Below are positions 2,746 to 37,980 of a DNA stretch of 64,000 nucleotides, piece by piece. Source of the DNA: Escherichia coli (lineage in GTDB: Bacteria > Pseudomonadota > Gammaproteobacteria > Enterobacterales > Enterobacteriaceae); assembly GCF_050920415.1 (NCBI RefSeq), contig NZ_CP169309.1, one strand, 5' to 3'. Position numbers and translations under genes: made by a program. Within the stretch, counting starts at the first letter, position 1; every line of letters begins with the position of its first letter. Below the pieces are notes generated by a model that saw only the letters and a program-made list of their open reading frames with translations, did not search any database and had not been told where the DNA came from.

Positions 2746-4062
<1,317 letters not shown>

Positions 4063-20603: not shown

Positions 20604-22271
20604 GTGGCTCAATTCGTTTATACCATGCATCGTGTCGGCAAAGTTGTTCCGCCGAAACGTCATATTTTGAAAAACATCTCTCTGAGTTTCTTCCCTGGGG
20701 CAAAAATTGGTGTCCTGGGTCTGAACGGCGCGGGTAAGTCTACCCTGCTGCGCATTATGGCGGGCATTGATAAAGACATCGAAGGTGAAGCGCGTCCGCA
20801 ACCGGATATCAAGATTGGTTACCTGCCGCAGGAACCTCAGCTGAACCCGGAACACACCGTGCGTGAGTCCATTGAAGAAGCGGTTTCTGAAGTGGTTAAC
20901 GCTCTGAAACGTCTGGATGAAGTGTATGCGCTGTACGCCGATCCGGATGCCGATTTTGACAAGCTGGCCGCTGAACAAGGCCGTCTGGAAGAGATCATTC
21001 AGGCTCATGACGGTCATAACCTGAACGTTCAGCTGGAGCGTGCGGCTGATGCGCTGCGTCTGCCGGACTGGGACGCGAAAATCGCTAACCTTTCCGGTGG
21101 TGAGCGTCGTCGCGTGGCGTTGTGCCGCCTGCTGTTGGAAAAACCAGACATGCTGCTGCTCGACGAACCGACCAACCACCTGGATGCCGAATCCGTAGCG
21201 TGGCTGGAACGCTTCCTGCACGACTTCGAGGGCACCGTGGTGGCGATTACCCACGACCGTTACTTCCTCGATAACGTTGCAGGCTGGATCCTCGAACTTG
21301 ACCGCGGTGAAGGTATTCCGTGGGAAGGTAACTACTCCTCCTGGCTGGAGCAGAAAGATCAGCGTCTGGCGCAGGAAGCTTCACAAGAAGCAGCGCGTCG
21401 TAAGTCGATCGAGAAAGAGCTGGAGTGGGTACGTCAGGGAACTAAAGGCCGTCAGTCGAAAGGTAAAGCACGTCTGGCGCGCTTTGAAGAGCTGAACAGC
21501 ACCGAATATCAGAAACGTAACGAAACCAACGAACTGTTTATTCCGCCAGGACCGCGTCTGGGCGATAAAGTGCTGGAAGTCAGCAACCTGCGTAAATCTT
21601 ACGGCGATCGCCTGCTGATTGACTCCCTGAGCTTCTCGATCCCTAAAGGGGCGATCGTCGGGATCATCGGTCCGAACGGCGCGGGCAAATCAACACTGTT
21701 CCGTATGATCTCTGGTCAGGAACAACCAGACAGCGGCACCATCACTTTAGGTGAAACGGTGAAACTGGCATCTGTCGATCAGTTCCGTGACTCAATGGAT
21801 AACAGCAAAACCGTTTGGGAAGAAGTTTCCGGCGGGCTGGATATCATGAAGATCGGTAACACCGAGATGCCAAGCCGCGCCTACGTTGGCCGCTTCAACT
21901 TTAAAGGGGTTGATCAGGGTAAACGCGTTGGTGAACTCTCCGGTGGTGAGCGTGGTCGTCTGCATCTGGCGAAGCTGCTGCAGGTTGGCGGCAACATGCT
22001 GCTGCTCGACGAACCGACCAACGACCTGGATATCGAAACCCTGCGTGCGCTGGAAAACGCCCTGCTGGAGTTCCCGGGCTGCGCGATGGTTATCTCGCAC
22101 GACCGTTGGTTCCTCGACCGTATCGCCACACACATTCTGGATTACCAGGATGAAGGTAAAGTTGAGTTCTTTGAAGGTAACTTTACCGAGTACGAAGAGT
22201 ACAAGAAACGCACGCTGGGCGCAGACGCGCTGGAGCCGAAGCGTATCAAGTACAAGCGTATTGCGAAGTAA
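20604..22271 (+). CDS. ettA: ABC-F family energy-dependent translational throttle protein EttA
   Basis: 555-aa ORF with two ABC ATPase cassettes, matching K-12 EttA (YjjK). Confidence 0.95.
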   Translation: MAQFVYTMHRVGKVVPPKRHILKNISLSFFPGAKIGVLGLNGAGKSTLLRIMAGIDKDIEGEARPQPDIKIGYLPQEPQLNPEHTVRESIEEAVSEVVNALKRLDEVYALYADPDADFDKLAAEQGRLEEIIQAHDGHNLNVQLERAADALRLPDWDAKIANLSGGERRRVALCRLLLEKPDMLLLDEPTNHLDAESVAWLERFLHDFEGTVVAITHDRYFLDNVAGWILELDRGEGIPWEGNYSSWLEQKDQRLAQEASQEAARRKSIEKELEWVRQGTKGRQSKGKARLARFEELNSTEYQKRNETNELFIPPGPRLGDKVLEVSNLRKSYGDRLLIDSLSFSIPKGAIVGIIGPNGAGKSTLFRMISGQEQPDSGTITLGETVKLASVDQFRDSMDNSKTVWEEVSGGLDIMKIGNTEMPSRAYVGRFNFKGVDQGKRVGELSGGERGRLHLAKLLQVGGNMLLLDEPTNDLDIETLRALENALLEFPGCAMVISHDRWFLDRIATHILDYQDEGKVEFFEGNFTEYEEYKKRTLGADALEPKRIKYKRIAK

Positions 22272-22282
22272 TGCGTAAAATG

Positions 22283-22313
22283 CCGGATGCGGCGCGCCAG
22301 CATCGCATCCGGT
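22283..22313. terminator. REP-like hairpin between the convergent ettA gene and the toxin-antitoxin operon
   Basis: gccggatgcg...cgcatccggt inverted repeat directly after the ettA stop codon. Confidence 0.5.
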
Positions 22314-22326
22314 AATAGTTAAATGA

Positions 22327-22611
22327 TTAATGGGAGGCAAGTTCCCGGAAAAAGGCAGGATTTTCTTTAATTGTGGCAAGTACTTTTGCAGCCAATCCCG
22401 TAGGATTTCTTCGCTTCGATTCCCAGCTTTTAATGGTATCCACACTGGTTCCCAGAGCTTTTGCCATCTCACTTTGCGAAACGTTGAGTTGCTCACGAAT
22501 AGCTTTAACATCCGCAATTTCGTAGCGGGTCACCCGTGCAGGTTCTTTTAAACCTTGTTTAATCTCGACAGCCTCTTCCAGAGAGGTTTTCAACTCATCA
22601 AAAAAACTCAT
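22327..22611 (-). CDS. XRE-family HTH antitoxin (HigA-like) of a type II toxin-antitoxin pair
   Basis: 94 aa from the ATG at 22611 (MSFFDELKTSLEEAV...); helix-turn-helix segment NVSQSEMAKALGTSVDTIKSWE; GAGG ribosome-binding site; start codon 1 nt after the toxin stop; absent from K-12 at this position. Confidence 0.7.
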   Translation of the reverse strand: MSFFDELKTSLEEAVEIKQGLKEPARVTRYEIADVKAIREQLNVSQSEMAKALGTSVDTIKSWESKRRNPTGLAAKVLATIKENPAFFRELASH

Positions 22612-22612
22612 T

Positions 22613-22944
22613 TTATACCTCACCTTTGAGCAGTTTCGTCAACTTCTTTAGTTGAGCTTTTTCCGTATCTGTCAGACTGTCTTTGGCATTCTTCGGATAG
22701 GCCATAATCAAATAAATAATCTCTTCCGTCGCCAGAAAGTAAATTATTCTGACACTACCACTTTTTCCCTGTGAACCCGCAGCCATTCGGACTTTACGCA
22801 ATCCACCAGTCTGCTGAATGAGATCACCTTTATCGGGAGTTCCGATGAGTTCTTTTTGCAATTCCTTTAATTCATCATCGGTTGCAATCTGCTTGATCTG
22901 ACGCGTAAACATTGGCGTCTCTATAAATATTATCGCCTTGCCCA
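22613..22944 (-). CDS. RelE/ParE-superfamily toxin (HigB-like) of a type II toxin-antitoxin pair
   Basis: 110 aa from the ATG at 22944 (MGKAIIFIETPMFTRQIK...RIIYFLATEEIIYLIMAYPKNAKDSLT...); small basic protein encoded immediately upstream of an HTH gene in a 2-gene operon; the ORF-track call 22613-23023 has a 26-codon upstream extension that I do not accept. Confidence 0.7.
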
Positions 22945-23036
22945 TTACCCTTCCCTGGCAGGTACATTGTACACCAAAATGGAGTACTAAGTACACTTTT
23001 GAATCAGTAATATCACTCAACATCTTATAAAGATGA

Positions 23037-24269
23037 TTATCCCTGCTCCCCCATCATCTCCCGCACCAACTCCACGCAGCGCAGGAAACGGCTGTCGTAA
23101 TCGTCCTCTTCAACCCGCACAAATTCGATATTGTTCTCTTCCAGCATTTCCACCAGCAAGTTCTGGAACTCTTTGCGATCCACCGAACTGCCGAGACTGC
23201 GTAAACCATCCGCCACCCACGGCGTGTTGTTCTCCAGCAGAATCACCAGATCAAAACGGTATTCATCGATCAGCGCCTGTACGAACGGATGCTCGCGCCC
23301 TTCGTACTTTTTGCAGAACGCCTGAGTTGTCACAAAATCGGTGTCGATAAACGCCACTTTATTGGCATATTTTACTGCAAAATCAATATATTGAGCGTGT
23401 CCAAGTGCGATTTTATCGTAGTCGGAATACTGCAATGCGATCTCATCGCCGCCAAGATGTGAAAAGACATAATCGCGACCATATTCCCATGCACTGGTAG
23501 TGTTGAAGATATTGGCAAGTTTGTTTACCAGGGTGGATTTACCGCTCGATTCGCCGCCGAGGATCGCCACGGTGCGCACAAAGAACGGCTTCACTTCGGT
23601 AGGAATATATTCCCAGTAGCGGAACGGATTTTCGCGGATCTGCGCACCACTGATACTCATAAAAGTACGTTTCGGATCGACCAATACCGTTTCGATCCCC
23701 AGATGTTCCATATACTGCGGCGCGTCGGCTTCTTCCGAGGTGTAGATCAGATCCGGCTGGATCCCTTTTTCAGCCATAAACTTTTTGATGCCGTTGCTCC
23801 ACACATCCCAGCCATGCGGATACGGCTCCATGCCCTCTTCGTTGAATGCATGAATGCGAATATTTTTCTGATATTTAAAAGTTTGCAATAACCAGCGCAG
23901 ACGATCCGGCACCGTGGGCTGCTGCGACATGGCGCTGTCTTCGAACAACGCGCGGTCGCGGGTAGCGTCAAAGCCCATAATGATATGCAGCTCGTCAACC
24001 TGACTACAGGCACGCTGGATAAGGTAGATATGTCCGGTATGCAGCGGGTAAAACTTACCGAATACAACACCAATAGTTTTCTTCTGCCGGGGAAATTCAA
24101 GTCCCAAATAACGGTGCAACGCCTCCAGCTTTTGCGCGCTGGGGCTTTTAATTTTGGCATTCAGTAACTGGCTTAAATACCCTTTGGTCATACCGCTGGC
24201 ATCAGCCACCTGCTGTAGCGTACAGCCCTGTTGCTTGATGGCAGTTTTCAGATAATCAAATGACGACAT
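23037..24269 (-). CDS. nadR: trifunctional NAD biosynthesis/regulator protein NadR
   Basis: ORF 23037-24290 contains the K-12 NadR sequence starting MSSFDYLKTAIKQQG at the ATG at 24269 (410 aa). Confidence 0.95.
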   Translation of the reverse strand: MSSFDYLKTAIKQQGCTLQQVADASGMTKGYLSQLLNAKIKSPSAQKLEALHRYLGLEFPRQKKTIGVVFGKFYPLHTGHIYLIQRACSQVDELHIIMGFDATRDRALFEDSAMSQQPTVPDRLRWLLQTFKYQKNIRIHAFNEEGMEPYPHGWDVWSNGIKKFMAEKGIQPDLIYTSEEADAPQYMEHLGIETVLVDPKRTFMSISGAQIRENPFRYWEYIPTEVKPFFVRTVAILGGESSGKSTLVNKLANIFNTTSAWEYGRDYVFSHLGGDEIALQYSDYDKIALGHAQYIDFAVKYANKVAFIDTDFVTTQAFCKKYEGREHPFVQALIDEYRFDLVILLENNTPWVADGLRSLGSSVDRKEFQNLLVEMLEENNIEFVRVEEDDYDSRFLRCVELVREMMGEQG

Positions 24270-32312: not shown

Positions 32313-32417
32313 GGTAACCTCCCGTGGAATAAGTTTGAAGGCGTTGTTGCCAGATGGCGGATGTTGTTATTGCCTGATGCTGACCGCTTCTTATCCTGCC
32401 TACACGGCAATCGTCCC

Positions 32418-32452
32418 GTAGGCCGGATAAGGCGTTCGCGCCGCATCCGGCA
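32418..32452. repeat. REP element in the deoC-deoA intergenic region
   Basis: gtaggccggataaggcgttcgcgccgcatccggca, an imperfect REP palindrome. Confidence 0.6.
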
Positions 32453-33513: not shown

Positions 33514-35064
33514 ATGCCCACTTCTCATGAAAATGCACTGCAACAACGTTGCCAGCAAATTGTCACCAGCTCAGTACTTAGCCCGGAGCAGAAGCGCCAT
33601 TTTCTGGCGCTGGAAGCAGAAAACAATCTGCCTTACCCACAGCTTCCTGCCGAAGCCCGCCGCGCGCTGGATGAAGGTGTAATCTGCGATATGTTTGAAG
33701 GTCATGCGCCGTATAAACCGCGCTATGTCTTACCCGATTACGCCCGTTTTTTGGCCAACGGTTCCGAATGGCTGGAGCTGGAAGGCGCAAAAGATCTTGA
33801 TGACGCACTCTCTCTGCTGACCATTCTTTACCACCACGTTCCTTCGGTCACATCGATGCCGGTCTACCTGGGGCAACTGGATGCGTTGTTGCAACCGTAT
33901 GTTAGAATTCTAACACAAGACGAGATCGATATTCGAATAAAACGTTTCTGGCGTTACCTCGACAGAACCCTGCCAGACGCCTTTATGCACGCCAATATTG
34001 GCCCATCTGATTCACCCATTACCCGTGCGATTTTACGCGCAGACGCAGAGCTGAAGCAGGTTTCACCGAACCTGACTTTTATCTACGATCCTGAAATCAC
34101 CCCTGATGACCTGCTGCTGGAAGTGGCGAAAAACATCTGTGAATGTAGCAAACCGCACATCGCCAACGGTCCCGTGCATGATAAAATTTTCACAAAAGGG
34201 AGCTACGGGATTGTGAGCTGTTACAACTCACTGCCGTTAGCGGGTGGTGGCAGTACGCTGGTACGCCTCAACCTGAAAGCCATTGCCGAGCGCAGTGAAT
34301 CGCTGGATGACTTCTTTACGCGCACTCTACCGCACTACTGCCAGCAGCAAATCGCCATCATCGATGCGCGGTGTGAATTCCTCTATCAACAATCACACTT
34401 CTTTGAGAATAGCTTCCTGGTGAAAGAAGGGCTGATTAACCCTGAACGTTTTGTGCCAATGTTTGGCATGTATGGGCTGGCGGAAGCGGTTAACTTGCTG
34501 TGTGAAAAAGAAGGAATTGCCGCACGTTACGGTAAAGAAGCCGCCGCAAATGAAGTGGGTTATCGCATTAGCGCGCAACTGGCGGAGTTTGTCGCCAATA
34601 CCCCCGTGAAATATGGCTGGCAAAAACGCGCCATGTTACACGCACAGTCGGGGATAAGTTCCGATATCGGCACCACGCCGGGCGCGCGTTTGCCGTATGG
34701 CGATGAGCCAGATCCGATCACCCATCTGCAAACTGTCGCCCCGCATCATGCTTATTATTATTCCGGCATCAGCGACATTTTGACGCTCGACGAAACCATC
34801 AAACGTAATCCGCAGGCGCTGGTACAGCTTTGCCTCGGTGCCTTTAAAGCCGGAATGCGTGAATTTACCGCCAATGTCAGCGGTAACGATCTGGTTCGCG
34901 TTACCGGTTATATGGTGCGTTTGTCGGATTTAGAAAAATATCGTGCCGAAGGTTCACGTACCAATACCACCTGGCTGGGAGAAGAAGCCGCACGCAACAC
35001 TCGTATTCTGGAACGCCAGCCGCGCGTTATAAGCCATGAACAGCAGATGCGCTTTAGTCAGTAA
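33514..35064 (+). CDS. yjjI: glycyl-radical-enzyme-like protein YjjI (DUF3029)
   Basis: ORF 33385-35064 contains the K-12 YjjI sequence starting [17 protein letters not shown] at the ATG at 33514 (516 aa). Confidence 0.93.
33900..33915 (-). promoter_or_regulatory. DeoR operator O1 at the distal deo promoter (deoP1), located inside the yjjI coding sequence
   Basis: Perfect 16-bp palindrome TGTTAGAATTCTAACA exactly 600 bp upstream of O2, matching the roughly 600-bp O1-O2 spacing I recall for the deo operon. Confidence 0.7.
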
Positions 35065-35899
35065 GATTATCCCCTTCTCCTGCGTTGACGGGCCAGGCAG
35101 TCGTCTGGCTCTGTTTTTACAGGGCTGCAATCTGCGCTGCAAAAACTGTCACAATCCGTGGACGATGGGGCGCTGTAATGATTGCGGTAAGTGCGTGCCA
35201 CAGTGTCCGCATCAGGCGTTGCAGATTATTAACAGCAAAGTAGTGTGGAACGCAGCCGTCTGCGAGCAGTGTGATACCTGTCTGAAGATGTGTCCGCAAC
35301 ATGCCACGCCGATGGCGCAATCCATGAGCGTGGATGAGGTGCTTAGACATATCCGCAAAGCGGTGCTGTTTATCGAAGGGATAACGGTAAGCGGCGGCGA
35401 AGCCACGACCCAGCTGCCGTTTGTGGTGGCGCTGTTTACTGCCATCAAAAACGATCCGCAACTGTGCCATCTCACCTGTCTGGTGGACAGTAACGGCATG
35501 TTGAGCGAAACCGGCTGGGAAAAATTACTCCCAGTGTGCGACGGCGCGATGCTCGACCTCAAAGCGTGGGGTGGCGCGTGCCATCAACAGCTAACCGGAC
35601 GCGATAATCAGCAGATCAAGCGCAGCATTAGTCTGCTTGCCGAGCGCGGCAAACTGGCAGAACTGCGTTTGCTGGTAATCCCAGGCCACGTGGATTATTT
35701 GCAGCATATCGATGAGCTGGCGGCGTTTATCAAGGGTCTTGGCGATGTTCCGGTACGCCTGAACGCGTTTCATGCTCACGGCGTGTATGGCGAGGCGCAA
35801 AGCTGGGCGAGCGCCACGCCGGAAGACGTTGAGCAATTGGCTGATGCGTTACGGGAGCACGGGGTGAGCCGATTAATATTTCCGGCGCTGTATTTGTGA
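35036..35899 (+). CDS. yjjW: glycyl-radical enzyme activating protein (radical SAM) YjjW
   Basis: 287-aa ORF with CxxxCxxC radical-SAM and ferredoxin-like Cys clusters, matching K-12 YjjW; overlaps the yjjI 3' end. Confidence 0.93.
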
Positions 35900-35915
35900 C
35901 ATGGCGGATGCAGCC

Positions 35916-36114
35916 TACGGTTCGGCACAGACCTGTAGGCATGATAAGACGCGTCAGCGTCGCATCAGGCATTGTGCGTCGACTGCCGGATGCGGTGTGA
36001 CGCCTTATCCGGCTTACGGTTCGGCACAGACTTGTAGGCATGATAAGACGCGTCAGCGTCGCATCAGGCATTGTGCGTCGACTGCCGGATGCGGTGTGAA
36101 CGCCTTATCCGGCT
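35916..36114. repeat. BIME: tandem duplication of an approximately 99-bp unit, each unit containing two REP-type palindromes
   Basis: Unit tacggttcggcacagacctgtaggcatgataagacgcgtcagcgtcgcatcaggcattgtgcgtcgactgccggatgcggtgtgacgccttatccggct at 35916-36014, repeated at 36015-36114 with 2 differences. Confidence 0.8.
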
Positions 36115-36127
36115 TACGAAGGGCAGA

Positions 36128-36910
36128 CTACCCACGAACGTTAAACACCGCATACGTGTTATTAAGCAACACTTCGGCAATCTCATCCGCGGGTTCCGGG
36201 CGTAACTCGCACAGCACGGCAAACACACGGGCGGCCTGTTCAGGGCGATTAGGCTGCCCCTGAAAACCATTGAGCGGCATATCTGGTGCGTCGGTCTCCA
36301 GCAACATCGATGCCAGCGGCAGCTTTGCGATGACATCGCGGGTTTTACTGGCGCGTGGATAGGTGATAGTACCGCCTACGCCAATTTTGTAGCCCAGCTG
36401 CACAAACCGTTCGGCCTGTTGCAGGCTGCCAGAAAAACCATGAACCACACCAGTGCGTGGCAAATTTTGGCGTTTAAGATGCATCGCCAGTTTGTCGTGC
36501 GTGCGCCGTGAATGAAGGATCACCGGCAGATCGTAGCGTTTCGCCAGTTTCAGTTGTTCATCAAGCAACCACTGCTGCCTCTCAAATTGCGGATCGTCAC
36601 CAAAGAGATCCAGGCCGATCTCCCCCACCGCCACCACCTTCGTCGGACGTCTTCCCAACGCCTGCTGTAACTGATCCAGCGATGCATCGTTATGTTTTTC
36701 CAACATCCCCGGATGGAACCCTAAAGCGGCATACAGCGGTTGATAATTTTCCGCTAACGCCTGCACGCGGGCAAAATTTGCCGCCTCGGTGGCCGGAACA
36801 ATGATCTTGCCTACGCCCGCTTGTGCCGCGCGTTGCAGGCTGGCCTCTTCATCGCCACTAAACGGCGGGAAATCAAAATGGCAGTGGGTGTCGATAAAAC
36901 GGCAAATCAA
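36128..36910 (-). CDS. yjjV: TatD-family metal-dependent hydrolase/DNase YjjV
   Basis: 260-aa ORF matching K-12 YjjV. Confidence 0.92.
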   Translation of the reverse strand: MICRFIDTHCHFDFPPFSGDEEASLQRAAQAGVGKIIVPATEAANFARVQALAENYQPLYAALGFHPGMLEKHNDASLDQLQQALGRRPTKVVAVGEIGLDLFGDDPQFERQQWLLDEQLKLAKRYDLPVILHSRRTHDKLAMHLKRQNLPRTGVVHGFSGSLQQAERFVQLGYKIGVGGTITYPRASKTRDVIAKLPLASMLLETDAPDMPLNGFQGQPNRPEQAARVFAVLCELRPEPADEIAEVLLNNTYAVFNVRG

Positions 36911-37980
36911 GCCAAATCCTCATTGTTAAATGTCGGGTCGTTCGCCTGTGGAGCGTCTATCACCTCGGTAACCAGCGTATCGTTGGCGACGGGTGCAGGC
37001 GGAATAACGATCGACTCCGGCGTCACCACCGGCACCAGATGGCGGCTCAGCGGCGCTTTTTCAGTCAATAACTTACCGACCGTTGCCAGAAAATAACGCC
37101 CGCATAAACGCCCAAGTTTATAGTCTTCACGCAGCGCCGGAATCCGACTGCCGAGCGCGATACTATGTAATGGCTTCGGCGGATAAATTTCGAATATCCT
37201 CAACTGGCCCGGTGGTTTCTCAATAAATTGCTGAATCTCACGATAGCTGGTTTCATGATGCTGCACCAGATTGACCAGCGGCTGCAGGCTACTGTCACCC
37301 AGCCAGCGTTCCATGCGTTTGAACCACTGCGGCGTATAGTACATTTGTGACGGCACAGTGCGGATAACGACCAACGTTTTTGCGCCCTGCCTTGCCGCCT
37401 CTTTAACCGGGATCGCATCACTGATCCCGCCATCCAGGTAATTAATGCCTTCCAGCGACACTCCGCTACGATAAAAGCCAGGTATTGCACTGGAGGCGCG
37501 AATCACATCCAGCCAGTTTTGTTTGGTTGGTAAAAAGTAATTCGGCGCGTAGTCATCCTGACGACAGGCGCACATATAAAACGATTTGCCGCTGTCAAAT
37601 AGCCGCGCTGCGGTGTCCATTTGCAACGGCATCTGGCTTGCGGTGGCCTCCACCAGCCAGTCGAGATCGATAAGATTTCCTCCACGGACAAAGCGCAATG
37701 GATCGAAAAATTCGCGTTTTGTGGTATAGCGCATGATGACTTTGCGCGCGTAACCGGGCTGATTGCAGATATACGCCGAGAGGTTCTGCGCCCCGGCAGA
37801 TGTGCCGAGATAAAGATCGAAAGGATTAAACTGCGCGCGCATAAACTCATCCAGCACGCCAGCTGTGAAAATTCCACGCTGCCCGCCGCCTTCGCACACC
37901 AGAGCTATTCGTCCAGGCTGGAACGGCCTTAGCGACAACGGCGCAATATTACCAAGCGTTACAGGTATTCGCTGCCCCAC
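36907..37980 (-). CDS. yjjU: patatin-like phospholipase family protein YjjU
   Basis: ORF 36907-38016 contains the K-12 YjjU sequence from a GTG at 37980 (V-GQRIPVTLGNIAPL; 357 aa); GxSxG patatin motif GTSAG present. Confidence 0.88.
   Translation of the reverse strand: MGQRIPVTLGNIAPLSLRPFQPGRIALVCEGGGQRGIFTAGVLDEFMRAQFNPFDLYLGTSAGAQNLSAYICNQPGYARKVIMRYTTKREFFDPLRFVRGGNLIDLDWLVEATASQMPLQMDTAARLFDSGKSFYMCACRQDDYAPNYFLPTKQNWLDVIRASSAIPGFYRSGVSLEGINYLDGGISDAIPVKEAARQGAKTLVVIRTVPSQMYYTPQWFKRMERWLGDSSLQPLVNLVQHHETSYREIQQFIEKPPGQLRIFEIYPPKPLHSIALGSRIPALREDYKLGRLCGRYFLATVGKLLTEKAPLSRHLVPVVTPESIVIPPAPVANDTLVTEVIDAPQANDPTFNNEDLA

Follow-up and report, generated by a model that had tools for sequence, protein, structure and literature searches.

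Two nearly identical repeat units lie head to tail in the 228-nt gap between the convergent genes yjjW and yjjV of Escherichia coli, in the 64,000-nt stretch of DNA analysed here (the window). Their near-identity raises the question of whether the second unit was created by a recent duplication, as the original prediction held, or whether an array that already had two units became uniform later. The answer depends on what kind of element the array is, how it varies among E. coli genomes, and which variants of the unit its relatives carry.

Anatomy of the array

We took gene annotation from the chromosome of E. coli MFDS1022581 (NZ_CP169399.1, 4387766–4451765), which is 100% identical to the window. 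Tandem Repeats Finder reported one array at 35916–36118 (period 99, 2.0 copies, 98% matches, score 392), and a second, separate repeat search returned the identical pair of copies at a spacing of 99–100 nt. When unit 1 and unit 2 are aligned in register, two differences separate them: a substitution (35933 is C, 36032 is T) and a 1-nt indel, the loop of the unit 1 Y REP lacking an A after 36000. This matches the two nearly identical head-to-tail units with two differences that had been described at the outset. The similarity of the units is far above chance; the 1-nt indel between them may be an assembly or sequencing error.

In each unit, GGTTCGGCACAGAC and a CT or TT are followed by an inverted Z2 REP, then by TTGTGCGTCGAC and a forward Y REP (Table 1). 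We typed the REPs against the Y and Z2 reference sequences quoted in PMC11208160. Both Y REPs fit the Y reference and fit Z1 and Z2 clearly worse, and both minus-strand REPs are of the Z2 and not the Z1 type, scoring 32 for Z2 versus 17 for Z1. REP orientation alternates in each unit, with Z2 on the minus strand and Y on the plus strand, and the linkers measure 12 nt on the head-to-head side and 14–16 nt on the tail-to-tail side. The full REPs all fold on either strand, forming hairpins of −15 to −20 kcal/mol. The array is extragenic, flanked by the stop codons of yjjW (35899) and yjjV (36128). By definition, a BIME-2 element combines z2 and y REPs in multiple tandem copies, and strains differ in how many copies they have at a particular locus (PMC3333891); at yjjW–yjjV, too, the tandem copies are strain-variable in number, from 0 to 5 in two samples of 59 genomes. 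The REP typing (Z2 34/36; Y 31–32/35) and the gene annotation together bear out the expectation of a BIME with two REPs per unit between convergent yjjW and yjjV, and the array is an ordinary element of an already described kind. The copy of the K-12 record NC_000913.3 that we examined has no REP or repeat features at yjjW–yjjV, where it holds CDSs only.

Table 1. Features of the yjjW–yjjV locus and of related loci (window coordinates unless stated otherwise)
Feature	Coordinates	Strand	Details
yjjW	35036–35899	+	PGAP annotation; stop TGA 35897–35899
Truncated Y-type REP remnant	35902–35918	+	TGGCGGATGCAGCCTAC; partial Y match 13/16; 2 nt past yjjW stop
BIME-2 unit 1	35919–36017		99 nt; linker GGTTCGGCACAGAC (14 nt), CT, inverted Z2 REP, linker TTGTGCGTCGAC (12 nt), Y REP
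Z2-type REP, unit 1	35935–35971	−	34/36 to Z2 reference; hairpin −14.8 to −15.3 kcal/mol
Y-type REP, unit 1	35984–36017	+	31/35 to Y reference; hairpin −18.9 kcal/mol as plus-strand RNA; 1-nt loop deletion versus unit 2
Match to Rfam naRNA4 RF02564, unit 1	35938–36014	−	62.9 bits versus gathering score 59.5; model 1–77 of 77
BIME-2 unit 2	36018–36117		100 nt; architecture as in unit 1, 14-nt linker then TT
Z2-type REP, unit 2	36034–36070	−	34/36 to Z2 reference; hairpin about −15 kcal/mol
Y-type REP, unit 2	36083–36117	+	32/35 to Y reference; hairpin −19.8 (+) and −15.6 (−) kcal/mol
Match to Rfam naRNA4 RF02564, unit 2	36037–36114	−	69.6 bits versus gathering score 59.5; model 1–77 of 77
yjjV	36128–36910	−	PGAP annotation; stop 36128–36130
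IS621 in GPEC548	2240–2290 and 3540–3560 of extracted locus		one-unit yjjV–yjjW allele
hicA/hicB at REPtron locus	21939–23372 of extracted source-genome segment		between flhA(lfhA) and yafL

The Y remnant at the yjjW end retains the head and the tail of a Y REP and lacks the central stem-loop; it has no stable fold (−4.2 kcal/mol, z = 0.1). It is found as TGCCGGATaCGGCCTAC at the equivalent position in all compared alleles with at least one unit, except in IMT16316 and HS-02, where it is reduced to AGCCTAC. At the other end, on the yjjV mRNA strand, the stem of the unit 2 Y REP starts 14 nt past the yjjV stop codon. REPs close to stop codons are said to be the subject of work by Liang, Rudd and Deutscher in 2015. 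The junction with yjjV takes other forms in some genomes. K-12-type alleles have a deletion of about 17 nt that fuses the last Y REP to yjjV, so that the conserved CTAC tail of the REP supplies the stop TAG and the last codon, and the CDS measures 780 nt instead of 783. HS-02 has a 41-nt GC-rich insertion, GGGGCTCGTTGTGCTGCGTGCGTGCGCTTCGGCTCGGCTCC, at the yjjV stop (about 670–710 of the extracted locus); its yjjV is annotated as a pseudogene, with the C-terminus missing. A 120-aa open reading frame at 35901–36263 (+) was considered as a small protein and treated as spurious; it crosses the REPs and then runs antisense into yjjV.

Elsewhere in the window, another REP-containing stretch lies between deoA and deoC (32368–32452); its similarity to the yjj units is about 80%, and a Y-tail, ATCCGGCCTAC, is found in it on the minus strand (32418–32428). 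At 22327–22945, between ettA and nadR, a gene for a RelE/ParE-family toxin adjoins nadS, which encodes a NadS family protein; K-12 is not known to have genes between ettA and nadR. A lambda-like prophage occupies about 41500–64000, beside prfC and a DinI-like gene, and includes genes for tail fibre, gpJ, tape measure, capsid, portal and terminase, the portal gene being marked frameshifted.

Unit number across E. coli

We searched 5,426 complete E. coli genomes, using as query the two 400-nt flanks of the gap without the gap itself. This flank query matched 5,423 of the genomes, nearly always at one place. Unit number was read from the distance between the flanks, which falls into classes about 100 nt apart, and the frequencies rest on two systematic samples of 59 of the 5,423 genomes, in a collection biased to clinical clones. 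The first sample held two genomes with no unit, 13 with one, 11 with two, eight with three, eight with four and 17 with five. In the second, which was ranked with K-12 flanks, the corresponding numbers were 4, 13, 10, 3, 11 and 18. Neither 59-genome sample contained an allele of more than five units. K-12 has four units at yjjW–yjjV.

With 0–5 units among the sampled genomes, the array is not a pair of units present identically in all E. coli, and the view that the locus is not fixed holds. Zero-unit strains exist, which means that no copy number is essential. Copy-number polymorphism had already been reported for BIME-2 elements generally (PMC3333891, citing Bachellier et al. 1997). We also parsed 16 alleles, from the window and 15 other genomes, and found one unit architecture throughout, with a few polymorphic sites shuffled among the units, so that unit variants form different mosaics in different strains. 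Two adjacent units of SCU-313 (u2 and u3) are 100% identical, a separate recent duplication.

Origin of the near-identity

We compared the window with its closest relatives at this locus. Among the 50 genomes with flanks closest to the window (93–100% identity), 44 have two units and six have one. The units of every compared two-unit relative, U1 and U2, differ at 3–5 substitution sites, and allele parsing gave GACC/GACT, GCGCCAAC/GCGTCGAC, GGCGTG/GGTGTG and GGCCTAC/GGCTTAC as the main U1/U2 marker sites. Unit 1 of the window has the U1-type C at 35933, the 5′ marker, and U2-type bases at four 3′ markers, which cover the linker and the Y REP. Unit 2 of the window is identical to unit 2 of both IMT16316 and HS-02. 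The unit nearest to window unit 1 is unit 2 of O104:H4, the sole difference being the 1-nt deletion. Over the 851 nt spanning the array, a match of at least 99% was found only in the source genome.

To judge from these alleles, the two-unit state is old and inherited. The presence of two U2-type units is private to the source genome and looks like a recent homogenization of an existing array, in which no second copy was created. Because the two-unit state is shared with relatives, and because U1 and U2 differ there, the near-identity points to homogenization and not to a new duplication. The original prediction was only partly right: the recent, private change is that unit 1 turned U2-like. 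It does not hold for the second copy, since relatives have two units as well, and theirs are distinct.

In this homogenization, the 3′ part of unit 1 (linker and Y REP) would have been overwritten by U2-type sequence, leaving the 5′ marker as U1. The route may have been a gene conversion tract across the linker and the Y REP. Alternatively, the 100-nt direct repeats may have undergone unequal exchange or replication slippage, by which the array grew to three units and then contracted. We infer that a conversion tract, or such an expansion and contraction, is the most economical route. The agents would be host recombination or replication functions and not a REP transposase.

We also considered a plain recent tandem duplication, in which a one-unit allele was duplicated and the copies then gained two differences. 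This would account directly for two near-identical units, and perfect adjacent duplicates are known at the locus (u2 = u3 in SCU-313), but window unit 1 retains the U1-type C at 35933. One-unit alleles, from which a duplication would start, do occur in the haplotype group, in the six of the 50 best-matching genomes noted above; however, the single one-unit relative compared, RMDEC465, has a U1-type unit (GCGCCAAC, GGCGTG, GGCCTAC) and not a U2-type one, and the other 44 genomes are already two-unit. Furthermore, the distal unit of every compared two-unit relative is identical to window unit 2 or within 1 substitution of it. Had U2 been duplicated, U1 would first have had to be lost, and the very site that is polymorphic would have had to change from T to C in addition. 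This C/T marker is polymorphic among U2-type units, with C in unit 2 of O104:H4, and the conversion scenario is only one or two steps apart from one in which U1 was lost, U2 was duplicated and T changed to C. Taken together, we consider a plain duplication unlikely and favour homogenization of an inherited two-unit array.

Polymorphism and insertion elements at the locus

From about 35000 to 37250, a region that takes in the BIME together with the 3′ portion of yjjW and the greater part of yjjV, the window is 88–94% identical to K-12, compared with 97–100% on both sides of it. Across the species, several haplotypes of the 800 nt of flanking sequence exist, and they differ by 5–10%. With the window flanks as query, 20 records matched at 99% or more and 5,267 at 90–95%; with the K-12 flanks as query, 454 records matched at 99% or more, 2,418 at 95–99% and 2,551 at 90–95%. 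Such flank polymorphism is unusually high for E. coli core genes. The roughly 90% identity to most E. coli raised the possibility of an origin outside the species. We rejected it because an E. coli chromosome matches the window at 100% identity, and because the divergence does not extend beyond about 35000–37250.

The original prediction regarded the array as the kind of REP-rich site that IS621 targets and located the target motif at the atcaggc of each unit. In nature, IS621 targets the 11-mer ATCAGGCCTAC, which has a CT core (PMC11208160), and this 11-mer in REP tails was described as the IS621 target by Choi et al. 2003, as cited in PMC1525189. We found no exact target with a CT core in the array, either as ATCAGGCCTAC or as ATCGGGCCTAC. 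The nearest target arm is ATCATGCCTAC, in the Z2 REP tails on the minus strand (35935–35945 and 36034–36044), with one mismatch, T for G at position 5. The atcaggc at 35964–35970 and 36064–36070 reads ATCAGGCATTG; it is the opposite (head) arm of the palindrome and continues with ATTG, so that there is no CT core and no AC. The prediction was therefore correct as to the kind of site, as an insertion at the orthologous site in GPEC548 demonstrates, and misplaced as to the position, the real arm being on the minus strand. K-12 and O157 have an exact IS621 target in their first unit.

GPEC548 has an intact IS621 in the orthologous Z2 REP of a one-unit allele, at the site ATCATGC/CT/AC, with flanks ...cttatcatgcCT and CTac.... 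A query that joined the yjjV flank to the left end of IS621 found this arrangement, in the tested orientation, in one of 5,426 genomes, GPEC548 itself. The variant target ATCATGCCTAC is thus usable by IS621 in nature. In one PMC11208160 supplementary file of natural targets, it occurs seven times, versus 596 times for the canonical 11-mer. The source genome, in which a query with the IS621 left end matched 11 places, suggesting about ten copies, has an empty IS621 site at the array despite these copies. One of the copies, 1,278 nt long, is in the window (2749–4026, minus strand). It interrupts a Z2 REP that lies between yaaA and yaaX, at ATCAGGC/CT/AC, which agrees with the natural target, and has the CT core at both junctions and the flanks ...cttatcaggcCT and CTac...; PGAP marks its transposase (2855–3834) as frameshifted.

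A second element was found in L1PEag1, which has a zero-unit allele with a single Y REP; IS1397, of the IS3 family, interrupts the loop of this REP (1525–2990 of the extracted locus). The palindromic units of BIMEs are published targets of IS1397 (Bachellier 1997; Clement 1999; both as cited in PMC1525189 and PMC3333891). We conclude that insertion sequences specific to REPs use the yjjW–yjjV BIME-2 as a landing site; IS621 enters the Z2 tail and IS1397 the Y loop.

In a broader reading, the copy number would change recurrently without a REP transposase. Together with the two unrelated families of REP-specific insertion sequences and the approximately 2.2 kb of polymorphic coding sequence around the array, this would make the yjjW–yjjV BIME-2 more than a passive repeat, namely a local hotspot of recombination and insertion, in which the array perhaps promotes exchange of flanking DNA, and in which copy number (0–5) perhaps tunes 3′-end stability or gyrase loading of the two convergent operons. 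We regard this reading as improbable.

Possible functions of the array

We found no intrinsic terminator-like site inside 35900–36127, which implies that both convergent transcripts would run into the REP hairpins. These hairpins could protect the 3′ ends of the yjjW and yjjV transcripts and attenuate read-through; stabilization of mRNA 3′ ends and attenuation of transcription are classical REP roles (PMC3333891). The Y REPs of the array may also be preferred, transcription-independent cleavage sites of DNA gyrase, as gyrase cleavage sites are enriched at BIME-2 elements, mainly at y REPs, and their signal is transcription-independent (PMC6379681). The text supplementary files of PMC6379681 make no mention of yjjV or yjjW. 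Finally, if transcribed, the units would resemble the HU-binding naRNA4; transcribed Y-Z2 units can bind HU (PMC4550694). For the array itself, 3′-end protection, gyrase cleavage and HU binding are roles that we infer by analogy.

Both units exceed the gathering score of the Rfam model RF02564 over its full length, linker included, on the minus strand (Table 1), and they could on this basis belong to a dedicated small RNA locus, with two naRNA4 paralogues that are transcribed from the minus strand and act with HU in nucleoid condensation. The presence of both hairpins in each unit fits this proposal, because naRNA4 activity requires two hairpins, Y and Z2 (PMC4550694). However, naRNA4 corresponds to a single Y-l-Z2 unit of REP325, itself a BIME-2 (PMC4550694). 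Since RF02564 is modelled on one such generic unit, any BIME-2 unit is expected to match it, and the match denotes a BIME-2 unit and not a specific small RNA gene. The plus strand, too, gives scores, of 50.3 and 49.2 bits, which do not reach the gathering score of 59.5. We detected no sigma-70-like promoter in 35400–36600, which implies that any RNA from the array would be yjjV read-through. Some strains, moreover, have zero units. A dedicated small RNA locus at yjjW–yjjV is therefore improbable in our view.

The REP transposase and the fidelity of the assembly

The REP transposase TnpA_REP, a RAYT, offers a different route to similar units: by cutting at CT sites, either in a linker or in a REP tail, it could add or replace a BIME unit. 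TnpA_REP cleaves and joins BIME DNA in vitro, and models of tandem BIME amplification have been published (PMC3333891). In E. coli, tnpA_REP is found only between yafL and flhA(lfhA), and in B1-clade strains it is replaced there by hicA/hicB (PMC3333891). In the source genome, we did not find tnpA_REP at this canonical locus between yafL and flhA(lfhA), also written fhiA(lfhA). The gene order is yafL-hicB-hicA-flhA: the hicA/hicB toxin–antitoxin genes stand in for tnpA_REP, with no room for another gene. The homogenization is private to the source genome and is therefore most likely younger than the clade-level replacement of tnpA_REP, which argues against the transposase as its agent. The number of REPs and BIMEs also differs only slightly between strains with and without tnpA_REP (PMC3333891). 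Amplification driven by TnpA_REP is hence very unlikely, and the presence of hicA/hicB at the canonical locus indicates that homogenization most likely occurred by host recombination or replication slippage.

An assembly artefact, in which repeat mis-assembly produced the near-identical copy or the differences between copies, is extremely unlikely. PGAP flags three CDSs of the window as frameshifted, so that residual indel errors are conceivable, and the 1-nt indel between the units falls in an AA run. However, the repeat of 2 × 100 nt is shorter than an ordinary read, related haplotypes usually have two units, and two independent genomes have a unit 2 that agrees with that of the window at every base. 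The risk of an artefact plausibly applies to the 1-nt indel only.

Discussion

We conclude that the yjjW–yjjV array is, very probably, a BIME-2 of Y/Z2 REP pairs that is present in almost every E. coli, and that its two units became near-identical when unit-2-type sequence recently overwrote unit 1 through host functions and not through a REP transposase. As a textbook BIME-2 it is of little importance and will not surprise a specialist. What it provides is a clean case of concerted evolution in a BIME array, in a genome without the REP transposase at its canonical locus, together with natural evidence for the use of the variant target ATCATGCCTAC by IS621 and an unusually polymorphic coding sequence around the array.

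The array compares closely with known systems. With the BIME-2 family of Gilson, Bachellier and Hofnung (via PMC3333891), it shares alternating Y and Z2 REPs, short linkers and tandem units of about 100 nt, as well as an extragenic position between convergent genes, a variable copy number and units that stay similar within one locus (PMC3333891). It shows no difference of substance from this family; what marks the window is an array of two units that both belong to the distal (U2) variant, with a truncated Y remnant on the yjjW side. With REP325/naRNA4 (RF02564; PMC4550694), it shares the full-length 77-nt Y-l-Z2 alignment, including the two hairpins that are both said to be needed for HU-dependent DNA condensation. 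However, REP325 consists of six units at yjdM–yjdN, whereas the array described here, at yjjW–yjjV, has two. As a potential site for IS621, the array has the Z2-tail 11-mer with a CT core, in the same strand and position as at the IS621 insertion in the window (about 4027–4037), but with T instead of G at position 5 (ATCATGCCTAC), a minor natural target. The IS1397 insertion of L1PEag1 is in the target type known for that element, the loop of a Y REP, whereas yjjW–yjjV in the window genome is free of IS1397.
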